Shown in pieces: positions 1,760 through 52,604 of a DNA stretch of 64,000 nt. The stretch's first letter is position 1, and the number at the start of each line of letters is the position of its first letter. This DNA comes from Candidatus Parcubacteria bacterium. Its GTDB lineage: Bacteria; Patescibacteriota; Patescibacteriia; Patescibacteriales; UBA12075. Both the position numbers and the translations under genes were made by a program. The notes beneath the pieces are model-generated. The model did no database searches, was not told where the DNA came from, and was given only the letters and a program-made list of their open reading frames with translations. The DNA lies in assembly GCA_023132155.1 (NCBI GenBank), contig JAGLYP010000026.1, forward strand, positions 1,741-65,740, in the 5' to 3' direction.

Positions 1760-4700
1760 ATGCAATCCCCATTGCTGAAAAAAATTAGAGCAATCTCTTC
1801 TAATATTTTATTTAGATTGGTATTTTTAATACTCTTATTAATGGCCGTGTTCAATTTTACACCCGGCCGTTTTATTTTTGTTAAAGCTTTTAACAATGAA
1901 ATTAAAATATTTCCCGGAAAATACGCGGTAGAGGAAAATGATGCGGAAAATTTTGTTTGGGAGAATGTTAATAACGCTTTTTTACAGTATTTATCTCCGG
2001 ATTCCGAGCTATCTGAATTTAATCAAGATAATTCGGCTTTTATTGCCTTGCGAAAAACAGATAAAAGCCAATCCAATGTTAAGGCCTTGCCGGAGCTTGG
2101 AAATTCCGAAGAATCCTCCGGCGCTGAAGCTATGGCGGGCAAGGATGACGCAAGTGATAATAGTGAAACCGAAGATGAGCTATTTGAGGTTATTGTAGAC
2201 GAGAATAATAAAGACGAGACGGCCGATAATATTGAAGAAAACAAGCAAGAGGATAGTGAAAGCCAAACATTGGCGCCCGATTTTGTCAGCGGCCCGGGAG
2301 ATGGCGATTTTGAAATAAAAAATATGGACTCAGGTCAAGTTGGCGGCAACAGCCAAACAATAAAGCAGGATAGCGATCAGGAGAAATCCGAAAACGAAAC
2401 TGAAAATCAAGATGGTGATTCGGAAAACGATCGGAAAGGTGAAGATAATCTTGAATTGAGCGGAGTTTATGAAAAAATAAAATCTTTATTTTCTTATTTT
2501 GATTTATTCGCGATTTTTAATAAAAATTCAGCTAATGCTGAAGAAAAATTACTTCAGCAAAGCGTGATTTTTTCCGATTTTAGCGTTCCTTTTGAATATA
2601 AAGACAGAGAAATAAATAGCTTGAATTTGTATTTGTCATTAGCGGCGCGAAGCGCGCAAGAAAATGATAATTTATTTTTTGAATATAGCTTGGGTGAAAC
2701 ATGGGAGCAAATAAGCGTTTTGGAATTGAATCAAGAATATTCCAATTCCGTTAATGGCGGATATTTTAATTTTCAGTTATCTGAGATAATCGGCTGGGAG
2801 GAGATTGAAGATTTAAAAATTAGAATTTCATATAACAGCAATAGTCCGCGGTTAGCAATGGAAAGTAATGCTGAAATTTTGGATTTTTTTGTATTTTTAG
2901 ATTCCCTTTGGATAGAAATTGAATATGATGATATGGACGAAGAGCAAGAAATAAGTGAAAGTGATTATATTCCTCAGTATAAAGAAAATTTTAATGGCGA
3001 GGAAGCGAAAGATGACGATTTAAGCGAATATAGCGTTGATTTATTGAATACTAAAGTTAATTTTAAAATAACCGAGAATCCGGAACTGAATTTTCGCTAT
3101 AAAAAGAATAAAAACTTGATTAATAAAATTATTTCCGGGCTTATCAGCCCTTTTAGCGATGAATATAATCATATAAAAATTTCCGCTGATTTGCGCGATG
3201 CCAGAGGTGATAAAACTGAACTTAAGCCGGAAGTTCGCTATATTAGCGAGGGGGAATTTTTAGTTAAGATTCCGGAAAATATCCGTGAGTTTAGACCAGG
3301 CAAATATTTTTTTGAGATTGAGATTGAAGATAAAGGTGAAATTTATCAGATAAGCCAGAATTTTAATTGGGGTGTTTTAGCGATTAATGTAAATAAAGCG
3401 GTTTATCGTCCCGGCGAAAGAGCTTATCTGCAGATGGGTGTTTTGGATGATTTTGGGCATACGCTTTGCGACGCGGATTTATTTTTAGAAATTACCGCGC
3501 CTAGCGACAAGACCGATATATTCAGCACTGATGATAATACGATTTTTAAGAATTCGGAATGCGCGGGCGATACTGTTATTTCGGGGTCTGATTATTATAG
3601 TTATTATTCCGTATTTGATACAGGAATTTATCGGATCAAGTTAAGGGCTGAAACAGAAAATGGGATTAGGGAAATATATGATGAATTCAAAGTTGAATCG
3701 GTTCAGTCTTTTGAACTTGAGCGGATTGGGCCGACTAGAATTTTTCCTTTAGCTGATTATGAAATGAAGATAATAATGCGCGCTAATGAAAGTTTTCAAG
3801 GAAATTTAGTTGAGTATGTTCCTGGTAATTTTAAAATTACGAATTACAAATTACACCTGTCAAGCGAGTACAAGCAAATTACGAATGAAGATATTAGTGT
3901 TCCTGATTCATTATTTTTAATTCAAGGCGATGAAATTGGTAAGAAGCTAATTTGGCAGAATCTTGATATAAAACCGGGAGATATCCTTGAATTTACATAT
4001 ACATTTGACGCGCCTGATGTTTCTCCGGAATTTTATTTGTTAGGTCCGTTAAAGCTGGTTGATGAGCATTATTTTAATTCCGGCGGAAAAAACGGTCAGT
4101 TGGTTTTTGAAGAAGAACGGCAATGGCAGGTTGCTTCTGACGCGGTCGCGGAATATGACGCCAATGGCGGTAGCAGTGTCGGCACTTGGGTTACTCCGTC
4201 TTACGCGTGGAATTCCGTAAATAATGATTATGCCATTCGCGATATACCGAAAAAGTCAGCAAGTGAAGAATATACAAATTATCTAATTGCCGATTCAAAC
4301 ACCGCCACTGACTTAGGTTATACGATTAATAGCGTTGAAATCGGTTTGGAGGCCTATATGGAAGATTTGCAAGCCGATATTACGGTTTATGTGCAGCCTT
4401 ATTTCGGCGGCACCGCCAGTGGAACAAGTTATGGTTTCGCGCAGTCCGTGTTGGGCACATCTGACGAGGATGTTGCGCATTATTACGATGTTACCAATGA
4501 CGCAAACGCGCCAAGTCCGTGGACATGGAGCGATATTATAAATTTAGATATTAAGCTTTGGGGCATAAACAATTCTAATTCCAGGCAGAGGATGTTTTAT
4601 ATTGATCAGCTCAGTATAATGGTTAATTACACTGAACCGAATGATCCTCCTGTCGGCGCGTTTAATTCAGCCACGCAAAAAAGAGATGGTGACGGAGTAG

Positions 4701-50573: not shown

Positions 50574-51083
50574 ATGAAAGTGAGAATTTTTGACCAAAAA
50601 AAGGCAACAGAAATAAGTTTAAAAGATTTTTTAGAAAATAAAAAAAATTGGAGCAAGGAGGCATTTCATTATTTTGATTTCGTTGATAAAAAATACGGTA
50701 ATTACAAGACGTTTTATTTTATTATTGCAAACAATTCGTTCTGCATAGGAACTGAGTCACTAAGTTCATCAAGTCATCTTAAGCTTTCTGAGAGTTTATA
50801 TAAGATAGACGGCAAGTCTAATGTCTATGGCGGCGGACATATAACGTTTTTGTTATCAGAAAAAAGTAGTAATTTAGTTGTTATTTCTGGTGCATCAGAT
50901 ACTTATAAAAGATGGTGGACAGGAGATGAAATGGCAGGATTTAAGGAAGATGAAAAATTAATAAGAGATTTGGCTGTTTTATTTTCTGCTTCTGTTTATT
51001 CTATGAGCGGACCAAATTATCTGGTTTTACAACGAAATGCCATGCTGGAAAGAGTAAGCATAGGAAAAATAGAGTGTTTATAA
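50574..51083 (+). CDS. hypothetical protein
   Basis: 169 aa with a strong SD (AAAGGAGGATGTAATG). No motif recognised. Confidence 0.45.
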   Translation: MKVRIFDQKKATEISLKDFLENKKNWSKEAFHYFDFVDKKYGNYKTFYFIIANNSFCIGTESLSSSSHLKLSESLYKIDGKSNVYGGGHITFLLSEKSSNLVVISGASDTYKRWWTGDEMAGFKEDEKLIRDLAVLFSASVYSMSGPNYLVLQRNAMLERVSIGKIECL

Positions 51084-51132
51084 AAATAAGAAATATAGAC
51101 ATCTAATTCTAACTCTTGTAAGGAGGTAAAAA

Positions 51133-51405
51133 ATGTATTTTCCAGACGATTTTAAGAGAAGATTGAAGGCGGTTTTTCCTGTAGAATATCATGGATATGT
51201 GGATGATGGCGTCTTTTCTGTAACTGAAGGTCAATTAGGCAAGGGGAGCAATTTCTCAATTAACGCGGAAACTATTGTTAAAGCACGTAAAGATGGTCGG
51301 GAAGAAGAGGACATTTTTAACCCGGCTCAAAATGCGGTTAAAATGCGCAAACTGAATAAAGAGTTGGGGCAGCTCTATAAAAAGCAATTTGGCATCTCAG
51401 ATTAA
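51133..51405 (+). CDS. hypothetical protein
   Basis: 90 aa with a strong SD (AAGGAGGTAAAAAATG). No motif recognised. Confidence 0.45.
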   Translation: MYFPDDFKRRLKAVFPVEYHGYVDDGVFSVTEGQLGKGSNFSINAETIVKARKDGREEEDIFNPAQNAVKMRKLNKELGQLYKKQFGISD

Positions 51406-51447
51406 GACGCAGAAACTAATTAAGAAATAACAAAAAAAATTATCCTT

Positions 51448-51478
51448 CGGCCAGTTTGCAAAAGCTGGTCGTTTTTTT
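51448..51478 (+). terminator. rho-independent terminator
   Basis: CGGCCAGTTT-GCAA-AAGCTGGTCG (10 bp with two G.U pairs) followed by TTTTTTT. Confidence 0.7.
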
Positions 51479-51523
51479 ATTATATGAACAAATAATACCT
51501 AAAATTTAAAATAAATTCAGCGC

Positions 51524-51675
51524 TTGACGTAAAGGCAAGGATAGTATAAATTATAAGCATGAATAAAATTATATCGCCAATTTACCCCCCGATCAATTTG
51601 GATGTTTAGTTTTAGCTTGGGGTTTTATTTTGGCGATAAAATGTTAAAACAATCCTAAGCGGGTTGTTTTTTTGT
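51524..51675 (+). promoter_or_regulatory. promoter plus structured leader with 16-codon Pro-containing ORF and intrinsic terminator (candidate attenuator of proB-proS)
   Basis: TTGACG, a 17-nt spacer, then TAAATT, giving a predicted +1 at 51559. The ATG at 51559 opens 'MNKIISPIYPPINLDV*'. Hairpin TATCGCCAA/TTGGCGATA plus ACCCC/GGGGT spans 51572-51638. Terminator AAAACAATCC-TAAGC-GGGTTGTTTT plus a T-run spans 51646-51675. The SD TAAGGAGGG and the proB ATG follow. Confidence 0.5.
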
Positions 51676-51703
51676 TATTTTAAAAAAATATAAGGAGGGA
51701 AAG

Positions 51704-52471
51704 ATGTCAAGAATTGTGATTAAAATCGGTTCAGCTGTGATTACGGACAATGGCAATGGTCTGGACGGTGATTTTATTGGCGAGATAGCCCATCAAGTTA
51801 ATGAATTAATTGTTGCCGGTCATGATGTTGTTATTGTAAGCTCAGGAGCGGTGGCCAGCGATCCTAAAAAAAACCGTTCGTGCAATTTAAGAGCGATGAT
51901 TGGTCAAGGAAAATTAATAGGCGAATACGCGCGCCAGTTTGCGAAATTTGAGTTGGAAGTGGCTCAGCTTTTAGTAAAGGATGAAGATTTTTTAAGGATA
52001 AAAAATGATTGCGGTTTGAATCAGCTTGAAATGAATTTGCTGGAGGGGTTTGAAGAAAAAATTGTTACGGTAATAAATTTTAATGATGGAACCAGCGACA
52101 GGGAAATGAAAATGCTGCCGCAATGCGCCGATAATGATGTTACAGCGAAAAACGTTTGCCTGTTGCCGGGAATTAATTTTGATTATTTGATTGTATTGGC
52201 AAATGTTCAGGGAGTAATGGATGAAAAAGGAGAATTAATCCCTTTAATAGATGGTAATAATTACGAGGAAGTTGTTAAAAATTTGAAAGGGGGAAGTCGG
52301 CAAGGTTTTAGCGAAAATGGCATAAAAGTAAAAGCCGAGTCATGCCGCGCGGTTGCAAGAACTGGCAGGGTTGCCATTGTTGCTCCGGGGCATGCTGAAG
52401 ATTGTGTTCTCCGCGCTTTTAATCGCTTGGAAAGTAAAAGTTGGCTGGATTTTGGCACATTTTTCATTTGA
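51704..52471 (+). CDS. proB: glutamate 5-kinase (amino-acid kinase domain only, no PUA domain)
   Basis: Alignable by eye to E. coli ProB: 'IVIKIGSAVIT' against 'VVKLGTSVLT'; 'AGHDVVIVSSGAVAS' against 'AGHRIVIVTSGAIAA'; 'VINFNDG' against 'VINENDA'; 'ADNDVTA' against 'GDNDNLS'. 255 aa. Confidence 0.7.
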   Translation: MSRIVIKIGSAVITDNGNGLDGDFIGEIAHQVNELIVAGHDVVIVSSGAVASDPKKNRSCNLRAMIGQGKLIGEYARQFAKFELEVAQLLVKDEDFLRIKNDCGLNQLEMNLLEGFEEKIVTVINFNDGTSDREMKMLPQCADNDVTAKNVCLLPGINFDYLIVLANVQGVMDEKGELIPLIDGNNYEEVVKNLKGGSRQGFSENGIKVKAESCRAVARTGRVAIVAPGHAEDCVLRAFNRLESKSWLDFGTFFI

Positions 52472-52604
52472 CAAAATATCCTGTTTATTGTTATAACTAT
52501 GGCAGTAAACAGGATAAATTTTTTTGACAAAACATATACAAATAATGTATTATATAGATTAGATAATTATTTAAGTGTTCAAAAAATTTGCACAGCTATT
52601 TTTT

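Follow-up and report, generated by a model that had tools for sequence, protein, structure and literature searches.

Does the short, proline-containing ORF that lies ahead of a proB-like gene in a Parcubacterium, together with the intrinsic terminator that follows it, make expression of that gene depend on the supply of charged tRNA(Pro)? Bacteria of the Candidate Phyla Radiation (CPR) are thought to be poor in biosynthetic pathways and in regulators, and proline biosynthesis has been regarded as being controlled by feedback inhibition or, in the Firmicutes, by T-boxes. A first-pass annotation of the window (the whole 64,000-nucleotide stretch of DNA that was analysed) had proposed a proline-sensing leader, possibly translated from a leaderless transcript, for a proB-proS operon.

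The leader and the gene that it precedes

The leader and its surroundings are laid out as follows:

51448-51471, followed by a T-run: upstream terminator, 5' of the leader
51524..51552, + strand: leader promoter (consensus scan), with -35 TTGACG at 51524-29, a 17-nt spacer and -10 TAAATT at 51547-52
51559..51609, + strand: leader ORF, MNKIISPIYPPINLDV-stop, 16 codons, from ATG 51559 to stop codon TAG at 51607-51609, with no SD
51577..51591, + strand: putative regulatory Pro codons, CCA at 51577-79 (codon 7) and the pair CCC-CCG at 51586-91 (codons 10-11)
51692..52471, + strand: the putatively regulated gene, proB, with SD AAGGAGG at 51692-98, ATG 51704 and CDS 51704-52471

The promoter, the mini-ORF, its Pro codons and the hairpin and terminator that are described below had all been located by the first-pass annotation, and each is found at those coordinates; the promoter is indeed a new one, 3' of the terminator of the previous operon. 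Taken alone, the promoter is weak: it matches the consensus at 9 of 12 positions, a consensus scan of 2.4 kb finds 13 sites of that grade where 8.7 are expected, and matches of equal quality also lie upstream, at 51455-51512. The case for a leaderless start is therefore made by spacing that is conserved across loci. In the window the leader ATG comes 6 nt after the -10 hexamer, so that +1 is predicted to fall on the A of this start codon. An in-frame TAA (51553-51555) two codons 5' of that ATG keeps the ORF from extending further upstream, the 5' end of the leader holds no ATG ORF of at least 8 codons other than MNKIISPIYPPINLDV, and this ORF has no SD, whereas proB has AAGGAGG. Leaderless translation, which had been put forward as a possibility, is probable. 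The consensus scan identifies no promoter-like site on the + strand between 51553 and the proB ATG at 51704, which implies that proB can be expressed only by read-through from the leader.

Three of 15 codons of the leader peptide specify Pro (P = 0.011 against the 3.2% Pro of the long ORFs of the window). The peptide also holds four Ile; isoleucine was considered as the sensed amino acid and rejected, since Ile is not enriched in the leaders of other genomes. A second, overlapping ORF, MFSFSLGFYFGDKMLKQS from ATG 51602, was set aside for lack of a counterpart in those leaders.

The product of the regulated gene is a 255-residue ProB-like glutamate 5-kinase with a Pfam AA_kinase domain and no PUA domain, and a Candidatus Parcubacteria hypothetical protein matches it with 100% identity. 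It scores 104.8 bits with TIGR01027 (proB), for which the cutoff is 186, and its sequence matches in the PDB are all glutamate 5-kinases or P5C synthases; judged by its sequence, it is probably a divergent ProB. A tblastn search of the 64-kb window yielded neither proA nor proC. The proposed proB-proS operon does not hold as one regulated unit: the two genes are separated by a hairpin (52477-52516) and by a proS promoter (52524-52553), upstream of a proS that starts at ATG 52605 and not at GTG 52575. The proS promoter and 5' UTR are 89.6% identical in a relative that lacks any proB. Since proS has a promoter of its own that is conserved in relatives without proB, it lies outside the regulated unit, and the notion of an operon was dropped.

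Mutually exclusive RNA structures

The alternative structures of the leader are built from four elements:

51572..51588, + strand: segment 1, the 5' arm of the anti-antiterminator (MFE fold), UAUCGCCAA (51572-80) and ACCCC (51584-88), within the ORF and holding Pro codons 7 and 10
51615..51638, + strand: segment 2 (constrained folds), consisting of GCUUGGGGUU (51615-24), which supplies the 5' strand of the antiterminator, and the pairing partner of segment 1, UUGGCGAUA (51630-38)
51651..51660, + strand: segment 3, AAUCCUAAGC, the 3' strand of the antiterminator, comprising the end of the terminator 5' arm and the terminator loop
51646..51676, + strand: intrinsic terminator, the attenuator (terminator scan), AAAACAAUCC-UAAGC-GGGUUGUUUU at 51646-51670 and a U-run to 51676

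The hairpin of segments 1 and 2 is present in the MFE structure and by itself has a folding energy of -20.5 kcal/mol; GGGGU (51619-23) of GCUUGGGGUU also pairs with ACCCC (51584-88) of segment 1. The terminator hairpin, at -8.4 to -9.3 kcal/mol, lies 16 nt before the proB SD. Computing the energies of the alternatives, a check that the first-pass annotation had called for, bears out its idea of exclusive structures: the antiterminator duplex GCUUGGGGUU/AAUCCUAAGC comes to -14.0 kcal/mol, compared with -9.5 kcal/mol for the arms of the terminator. The particular antiterminator that it had drawn, GGAUGUUU paired with AAAC(A)AUCC, does exist, but at -6.7 kcal/mol it loses to the terminator; with the better helix blocked the terminator still forms, and this pairing was accordingly abandoned in favour of 51615-24/51651-60. 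With the latter duplex in place, the geometry is closer to the trp paradigm than had been claimed.

Folding distinguishes three states. Free RNA adopts the 1:2 hairpin together with the terminator; stalling of a ribosome at Pro codons leaves the antiterminator; once the ribosome stands at the stop codon, the terminator is back. In silico, the terminator has a probability of 0.95 in free RNA, which falls to 0.01 when the A site of the ribosome is on Pro11 and returns to 0.93 when the ribosome has come to the stop codon. In the ribosome scan of the leaders only RNA 3' of the ribosome was folded; a model in which the ribosome was masked but pairing across it was permitted was dropped as inconsistent for one class of leaders (class A, below). 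The result for the window is stable for assumed 3' edges of the ribosome from +10 to +16, and of 500 shuffles of the 87 nt that precede the terminator only 1 brings back the three-state switch. In this model a stall at almost any codon from 3 to 15 gives antitermination.

We infer the start of transcription, translation of the ORF, stalling upon proline limitation and termination in vivo, which would be connected in the following way. Transcription would start at or beside the A of the ATG at 51559, with a ribosome translating the 16-codon ORF as RNA polymerase proceeds. When proline is ample, the ribosome would get to the stop codon and cover the start of segment 2; after its release the 1:2 hairpin would re-form, the terminator at 51646-51676 would form in its turn, and transcription would stop short of the proB SD. 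When Pro-tRNA is scarce, the ribosome would stall at CCA, CCC or CCG (codons 7, 10 and 11) and cover segment 1. GCUUGGGGUU (51615-24), thereby freed, would form a duplex with AAUCCUAAGC (51651-60); this would block the terminator stem, and polymerase would enter proB. In the absence of translation the 1:2 hairpin and the terminator would form, and proB would be off.

The same design in related genomes

Upstream of homologous ProB-like kinases in Moranbacteria and in other metagenome-assembled genomes of the Parcubacteria group there are 21 other distinct leaders. With that of the window they make up 22 leaders in three sequence classes, unrelated to each other in sequence and following one common design; each of the 21 consists of a promoter, then a short ORF in which 2-4 Pro codons are clustered, then a terminator. 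Conservation of the Pro-codon mini-ORF, on which the first-pass annotation had staked its proposal beforehand, is thus found in all 21, and one further locus (L053) has an ATG-ORF without Pro. The leader ORFs of relatives are 16-29 codons long, and the homologous promoters have TTGACA, a spacer of 16-18 nt and a -10 hexamer at the same distance from the ATG. That distance is exactly 6 nt in 12 of the 22 leaders, the window included (L008, L010 and L020 were read by eye). Four leaders with 19-23-nt UTRs, and L028, which has an SD, depart from the leaderless layout. All 22 leaders have a terminator (computed for 19, and read from the sequence in L055, L056 and L058), with energies in the other leaders of -8.4 to -14.7 kcal/mol. 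In L012, L033, L035 and L038 the start codon is shifted by ~18 nt and a Pro-codon ORF of the same length is kept. A PP pair at codons 10-12 is common to the window, L021/L054 and L028; the Pro codons of classes A and B are spaced, as PxxPxP and PxP.

The excess of Pro codons is not confined to one class. In 12 representatives 32 of 288 codons specify Pro (P = 1.5e-9 at a background of 3.2%), an excess of ~3.5-fold against the background of the window and 5-fold against that of the loci. Pro is the sole residue that is present at least twice in all 12, and the sole one that is enriched in every leader class. By reading frame, CC dinucleotides number 32 at codon position 1 and 7 and 19 in the other two frames. 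The Pro codons of class A vary only synonymously (CCG, CCA, CCT), while neighbouring codons change their amino acid. Because the C-rich Pro codons have pairing partners in the G-rich segment 2, structure could account for some of their conservation.

The antiterminator, too, is conserved. In class A its 26 pairs are 94.5% paired (slid controls, 34-48%) and five of them show double compensatory changes; part of the class A ORF (LGCLCVF) is conserved as the antiterminator strand. The RNAalifold consensus of class C (the window, L021 and L028) is likewise an antiterminator overlapping the 5' arm of the terminator, as is that of class B. Eighteen of the 19 leaders that were scanned in silico form the antiterminator upon a stall at Pro codons and the terminator when the ribosome is at the stop codon. 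The Pro codons fall inside the run of codons that gives antitermination in every leader but L028 (at its end in classes A and B), and in L021 the antitermination window corresponds exactly to the A site being on the second Pro. In the equilibrium model no clear switch is seen for L028. The free RNA of several class A leaders already folds at equilibrium as the antiterminator, so that the off state there must be kinetic.

The leader goes with whichever gene opens the pro cluster: in L035 and L038, where the gene order is proC-proA-proB-proS, it lies ahead of proC. (proA and proC adjoin in L002, L005, L035 and L038.) No leader was found in relatives without proB; these include four ProS relatives at 76-78% identity, within a top tier of 75-78%. 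No confirmation of the Pro ORF comes from L052 and L053, the two closest ProB relatives. L052 (46% identity of ProB) has no leader; L053 is the closest (56%), its truncated contig starts 192 nt upstream, and its aligned ATG-ORF has no CCCCCCG segment and no Pro codon.

Competing readings and known systems

The explanation that best accommodates the observed sequence features, the exclusive structures and their energies, their conservation and covariation, the conservation of Pro codons and the linkage to pro genes is that the leader is probably a ribosome-mediated attenuator of transcription, of the leader-peptide type, through which the supply of Pro-tRNA(Pro) would govern the gene of the ProB-like kinase. 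The first-pass claim, in which a proline-biosynthesis gene is controlled by a Pro-codon leader through exclusive structures and an intrinsic terminator, is supported by its recurrence in the 21 other leaders and by the covarying antiterminator. A leader of this kind might instead report on the speed of translation: Pro-Pro stalls ribosomes intrinsically, and read-through would then register the activity of EF-P or translation capacity. The PP pairs at codons 10-12 of the window, L021/L054 and L028 and the coincidence in L021 of the antitermination window with the second Pro are what one would look for, and Pro-rich leader ORFs that are under the control of EF-P have been described in Salmonella (e.g. 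PMC6460261). However, the PxxPxP and PxP arrangements of classes A and B are not strong EF-P-dependent motifs, and the regulated genes are always genes of proline biosynthesis, with the leader tracking the first of them. We consider this reading unlikely, although the two are compatible to the extent that EF-P status could modulate a proline sensor.

It is less likely still that the ORF is incidental to a translation-independent RNA switch, whether a riboswitch, a T-box-like tRNA sensor or the target of an RNA-binding protein. Exclusive, covarying helices do exist irrespective of translation, class A LGCLCVF is conserved because it is an antiterminator strand, and in the window the C-rich codons pair with G-rich partners. 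Against this stand the in-frame, exclusively synonymous variation of the Pro codons, the start codon that has moved in four leaders with the length of the Pro ORF maintained, the fixed distance from -10 to ATG in 12 of 22, the absence of an aptamer-like conserved unpaired pocket, and three classes that have only the ORF, Pro codons and terminator in common. Nor does a known family step in, as the first-pass annotation had allowed: at the gathering threshold Rfam gives no match in the whole window or in 10 leader-bearing loci, and neither T-box (RF00230) nor any riboswitch family matches in 51380-51760 up to an E value of 10. The best Rfam resemblance, Phe_leader (RF01859), lies below threshold (29.4 bits, E = 0.0047, at 51558-51676; gathering threshold, 55 bits) and is matched over its full length, as an architecture only, the codons here being Pro and not Phe. 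Coincidence (an independent small gene or spurious ORF with its terminator, or simply a 5' UTR that has structure, leaky read-through giving constitutive expression of proB) is very improbable. In its favour are the weak promoter match, the frequency of short ORFs in AT-rich DNA, an MFE z-score that reaches only -2.6 for the leader, and the lack of a Pro ORF in the closest relatives, L052 and L053; but shuffling almost never recreates the switch, the design recurs in 21 other leaders with covariation and a highly significant enrichment of Pro, and the leader shifts to proC where proC comes first.

Attenuation by a leader peptide is a classic control device; here it most likely turns proB on when proline is in short supply, a use not known from earlier descriptions in proline synthesis or in Parcubacteria. 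Leader-peptide attenuation is known for the Trp, His, Leu, Thr, Phe, Ile/Val and Cys pathways of Proteobacteria, Actinobacteria and a few Firmicutes. With the classical attenuators (trpL, hisL, leuL, thrL, pheL and ilv of Proteobacteria; trp, leu and ilvB of Actinobacteria) the Parcubacterial leaders share a short ORF with codons for the end product, the succession of 1:2 anti-antiterminator, 2:3 antiterminator and 3:4 terminator, and the principle that a stall in or near segment 1 frees segment 2. They differ in sensing proline, in their CPR host, in the absence of sequence homology, in having only 2-4 regulatory codons, spaced or paired, and in an mRNA that is predicted to be leaderless. The T-box leaders of Firmicutes proBA and proS distinguish uncharged from charged tRNA(Pro) and choose between terminator and antiterminator; a T-box binds tRNA directly and does not need translation. 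Their regulatory purpose is alike, but the leader here has a length of ~115 nt and no T-box match. Neither Rfam 15 nor the searchable literature contains an attenuator of proline biosynthesis, and no description of a proline leader peptide for pro genes or of any CPR attenuator was found in that literature.

Two other systems come close in part. The Pro-codon leader ORFs mgtP (mgtCBR leader) and mgtL (mgtA leader) of Salmonella sense Pro-tRNA; stalling under proline limitation alters the leader RNA and raises downstream transcription, as Pro-to-Gly changes in a proline auxotroph showed (PMC3641672). These, too, are short ORFs, with 3-4 Pro codons; however, they have an SD, belong to long leaders that integrate multiple signals, control genes for Mg2+ transporters and for virulence, and show no sequence relationship, whereas the output here is the proline pathway itself, in a simple end-product feedback loop. 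In mycobacteria, leaderless polycysteine sORFs serve as attenuators (Canestrari et al., bioRxiv 10.1101/834739). The likeness lies in a leaderless sensory first cistron and in the stall at codons for the amino acid of the pathway, which remodels the RNA downstream. The mycobacterial sORFs use Cys codons and act on translation, stalled ribosomes unmasking the next RBS; here the codons are Pro and the output is an intrinsic terminator with its U-run.

On balance we lean towards regarding leaderless Pro-codon attenuators as a widespread and previously undescribed regulatory family of the Parcubacteria (CPR/Patescibacteria), with at least three sequence classes that keep the design alone (a promoter, an ATG at +1, Pro codons in a cluster, an antiterminator and a terminator). 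If such a family exists, its members would be the first amino-acid-sensing cis-regulator to be reported in the CPR and the first of the classical attenuators to be devoted to proline biosynthesis, and the coupling of leaderless translation to transcription termination would extend beyond the Actinobacteria. The ~115-nt leader is a compact candidate part for a proline biosensor, and its layout (a short ORF 6 nt past a -10 hexamer, then a terminator) offers a search rule for sensory mini-ORFs in metagenomes. Such attenuators would also mean that the device can be rebuilt repeatedly from unrelated sequences, and that CPR bacteria with reduced genomes make proline and tune its synthesis to the charging of Pro-tRNA, regulating a retained amino-acid pathway with nothing more than the ribosome and the folding of RNA.

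The leader of proB and its predicted switch

The region upstream of the ProB-like glutamate 5-kinase gene (proB) contains the features that the first-pass annotation had claimed for it:

51448-51471: terminator of the preceding 90-aa ORF, followed by a T-run (from a scan)
51524-51552: promoter-like site, TTGACG-17-TAAATT, with 9 of 12 consensus matches
51559-51609: leader ORF MNKIISPIYPPINLDV-TAG, its ATG (51559) six bases 3' of the -10 and without a Shine-Dalgarno sequence (SD)
51577, 51586, 51589: Pro codons CCA, CCC and CCG of the leader ORF
51572-51638: large hairpin, UAUCGCCAA..ACCCC / GGGGU..UUGGCGAUA, -20.5 kcal/mol
51646-51676: intrinsic terminator, AAAACAAUCC-UAAGC-GGGUUGUUUU, with its U-run
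51704-52471: 255-aa gene (proB), preceded by a strong SD, AAGGAGG, 16 nt past the terminator

The promoter match is weak, and the promoter scan finds sites of equal quality further upstream. It finds none in the window between the leader and proB, so that proB would be transcribed only by read-through of the terminator. (A second, overlapping ORF, MFSFSLGFYFGDKMLKQS, with four Phe, lies at 51602-51658; its ATG is within the leader in a different frame and lacks an SD, and no counterpart occurs in the other leaders.)

Unconstrained, the RNA folds into the hairpin of segment 1 (51572-51588, in the ORF) with segment 2 (51615-51638), together with the terminator (MFE z = -2.6). Stalling was simulated by removing, before folding, the nucleotides under a ribosome at each of the three Pro codons. 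At any of these the MFE structure is a helix of GCUUGGGGUU (51615-24) with AAUCCUAAGC (51651-60, segment 3); the latter comprises the terminator loop and the end of the terminator 5' arm, and formation of the helix precludes the terminator. P(terminator) goes from 0.95 in free RNA to 0.01 with the A site at Pro11 and returns to 0.93 once the ribosome has reached the stop codon, in keeping with the first-pass logic of exclusive structures coupled to translation of Pro codons. The antiterminator proposed there, pairing the last leader codons with the 5' half of the terminator, has been abandoned: its duplex energy is -6.7 kcal/mol, compared with -14.0 for GCUUGGGGUU/AAUCCUAAGC and -9.5 for the terminator arms, and it loses to the terminator even when the GCUUGGGGUU/AAUCCUAAGC helix is blocked.

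As modelled, the geometry is of the trp type (1:2 / 2:3 / 3:4, segment 4 being the 3' side of the terminator), with the Pro codons within segment 1, a closer fit to that paradigm than was at first expected. Among 500 shuffles of the 87 nt upstream of the terminator, a single one reproduces the three-state switch, which is robust to placing the ribosome 3' edge from +10 to +16. The model yields antitermination upon stalling at nearly any codon, and the peptide has four Ile; we infer the Pro specificity of this leader from the gene under its predicted control and from the leaders of the other classes.

Leaders in related loci

Aligned ProB-like kinases of the CPR clade served to retrieve 51 loci from genomes and metagenomes, and exact-protein look-ups added 7 more. 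Upstream of the kinase they provide 21 more distinct leaders, which fall into three sequence classes:

Class A: peptides MNNFKYANSIPADPRPRQLGCLCVFEINR, subclass MNSARRTMNVGLPVPAKAGCFCVFGIGD; loci L004, L005, L006, L008, L010, L020, L013, L025, L026, L033, L012, L035, L038
Class B: peptides MKKNLTKSLPQPINPKSFLRLFVSV and MKSNQTAKSPIPTDPIPNLRLVC; loci L002, L003, L055, L056, L058
Class C: peptides MNTNYFLQLIPPTMLNVVNV, MRKLLLQINPPHNHSFVTFGSFGV and that of the window; loci L021/L054, L028 and the window

Every leader has two to four clustered Pro codons and an intrinsic terminator (-8.4 to -14.7 kcal/mol) beginning 20-37 nt past the stop codon. The Pro ORF is essentially the sole ATG ORF of at least 8 codons at leader 5' ends, so that the rule for selecting ORFs adds little bias. 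A Pro mini-ORF is present in 21 other leaders. The two nearest ProB relatives do not confirm the particular ORF of the window. L052 (46% ProB identity) is without a leader. L053 (56%) is similar in the 3' half (GCTTGGAGTT, terminator, SD), on a contig that ends 192 nt upstream; in its aligned ATG-ORF the CCCCCCG block is missing and there is no Pro codon.

Pro accounts for 32 of 288 codons in 12 representatives (P = 1.5e-9 at the 3.2% background of the window's long ORFs; the background in proteins of these loci is 2.1%) and is the sole residue to occur at least twice in all 12. CC dinucleotides start 32 times at codon position 1 vs 7 and 19 times in the other frames. In class A, Pro codons 11, 14 and 16 vary in the third base only (CCG, CCA, CCT), while the codons between them undergo amino-acid changes (A/V, D/A/V, R/H/Q/T). 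Despite a start codon displaced by ~18 nt, L012, L033, L035 and L038 retain an ORF of equal length with two Pro. Judged from these counts and alignments, the Pro codons appear to be selected as codons.

The structures are conserved as well. The class A antiterminator helix (13 sequences, alignment A2) has 26 pairs, 94.5% paired, with both sides changed in 5; shifting it by 1-3 columns, as a control, leaves 34-48% paired. Pairing reaches 98% in the terminator of this class, where three pairs are compensatory, and 88% in its 1:2 helix. Columns 141-150 of A2 are used by both antiterminator and terminator, making the two mutually exclusive. For class C (three leaders, that of the window among them), the RNAalifold consensus coincides exactly with the window's antiterminator, N-C-G-U-U-U-(A)-G-G-G-G pairing with the terminator loop and 5'-arm end; that of class B is also the antiterminator. 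(Class A peptides are nearly invariant in their C-terminal half, LGC[LF]CVF, for example at ~1585-1625 of L004; the nucleotides encoding it are the antiterminator 5' strand and also pair with segment 1.)

A codon-by-codon scan, folding only RNA 3' of the ribosome, gives P(terminator) of ~0 for stalls through the Pro cluster, inclusive, in 18 of the 19 leaders scanned. The probability rises to ~0.9 within a few codons past the cluster in classes A and B. The antitermination window of L021/L054 is only four codons and opens exactly with the second Pro of PP in the A site; for L028 the equilibrium model yields little change. Several class A leaders adopt the antiterminator already as free RNA at equilibrium, so that kinetics must account for their off state.

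The ATG lies exactly 6 nt past the -10 in 12 of 22 leaders (spacings of L008, L010 and L020 read by eye), behind TTGACA, 16-18 nt, TAnnnT promoters, and none of the 12 has an SD; from this layout, leaderless initiation is likely. Elsewhere the spacing is 8-9 nt (L021, L055) or there is a 19-23-nt UTR (L012, L033, L035, L038); the L028 ORF has an SD.

Several loci depart from the common layout. The spacer between leader terminator and proB start is 216 nt in L010/L020, ~190 nt in L055/L056 and 149 nt in L028; the long spacers are conserved within each locus pair, and that of L028 contains GC-rich inverted repeats. L009 (~2930-3000) retains only a terminator, AAACAGCTTGCCTTCCGCGAGCTGTTTTTT; L035 and L038 have the identical one in their leaders. 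It stands directly past an upstream P-type ATPase gene, with no promoter visible before proB, and the leader of L009 seems to have been deleted. L014 (~2940-3003) and L036 (~1545-1610) have a GTG ORF, MKPPFSTLKIENRQ..., starting 8 nt past a -10 (TAGGGT), with a PP pair at codons 3-4 and no terminator. Its stop overlaps the kinase ATG in L036 (ATATGA), and the L014 version forms an in-frame fusion with the kinase. Proline sensing in these loci may take a variant form based on translational coupling.

Relation to known attenuators

Searches with Rfam 15 give no hit at threshold, either in the window or in ten related loci, and no match to a T-box or to a riboswitch, the latter an alternative named in the first-pass annotation. 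The best sub-threshold match of the window leader, over the full model length, is Phe_leader (29.4 bits vs 55), a resemblance of common architecture and not of homology. Functionally, the element would be a classical leader-peptide attenuator. The Pro-codon leader ORFs mgtP and mgtL of Salmonella, which sense Pro-tRNA, differ in governing Mg2+ transport genes (PMC3641672), and the leaderless cysteine-sensing sORFs of mycobacteria differ in working at the level of translation (10.1101/834739). Proline is not among the attenuators in accessible surveys (PMC2965389; PMC1262725), and full-text searches of open papers turned up neither a proline attenuator for pro genes nor any attenuator in CPR bacteria. 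On the folding models and the comparison of leaders, we consider a proline-specific leader-peptide attenuation mechanism at proB quite probable.

The gene under predicted control and its neighbors

The 255-aa product is an amino-acid kinase; a hypothetical protein from a Candidatus Parcubacteria MAG (769-kb contig) matches it with 100% identity. The product's best NCBIfam model is proB (104.8 bits vs a cutoff of 186), and its PDB sequence matches are, without exception, glutamate 5-kinases or P5C synthases. Neither proA nor proC was found within the 64-kb window. The two window ORFs upstream, of 169 aa (50574-51083) and 90 aa (51133-51405), belong to neither a Pfam nor an NCBIfam family, and none of the fetched loci contains a homolog of them.

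Although proS directly follows the kinase in 19 loci, and the first-pass annotation had joined the two in an operon, two elements separate them in the window:

52477-52516: hairpin 3' of proB, before proS
52524-52553: proS promoter, TTGACA-18-TATTAT, followed by an SD-less 5'UTR

Promoter and 5'UTR are 89.6% identical to positions 689-783 of L059, which is without proB; control of proS by the leader was rejected, and by this sequence comparison proS is placed outside the regulated unit. ProS begins at ATG 52605 rather than at GTG 52575, the start in the 568-aa database entry. Most loci have a TTGACA/TATAAT promoter for proS in the proB-proS spacer (for example L008 3735-3765, L012 3745-3810, L004 2610-2650); in L008 just 8 nt separate the -10 from the ATG of proS, which may itself be leaderless there.

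The genes proC and proA adjoin in L002/L024, L005, L035 and L038. In L035 and L038 the order is proC-proA-proB-proS, with the leader upstream of proC and not of proB, indicating that its position follows whichever proline-biosynthesis gene comes first in the cluster. Set against window positions 50574-52520, four ProS relatives (L059-L062; 76-78% identity) keep the proS-mreB-mreC synteny without proB and without the leader (secDF lies upstream of proS only in L062), which marks proB and its leader as an accessory module.
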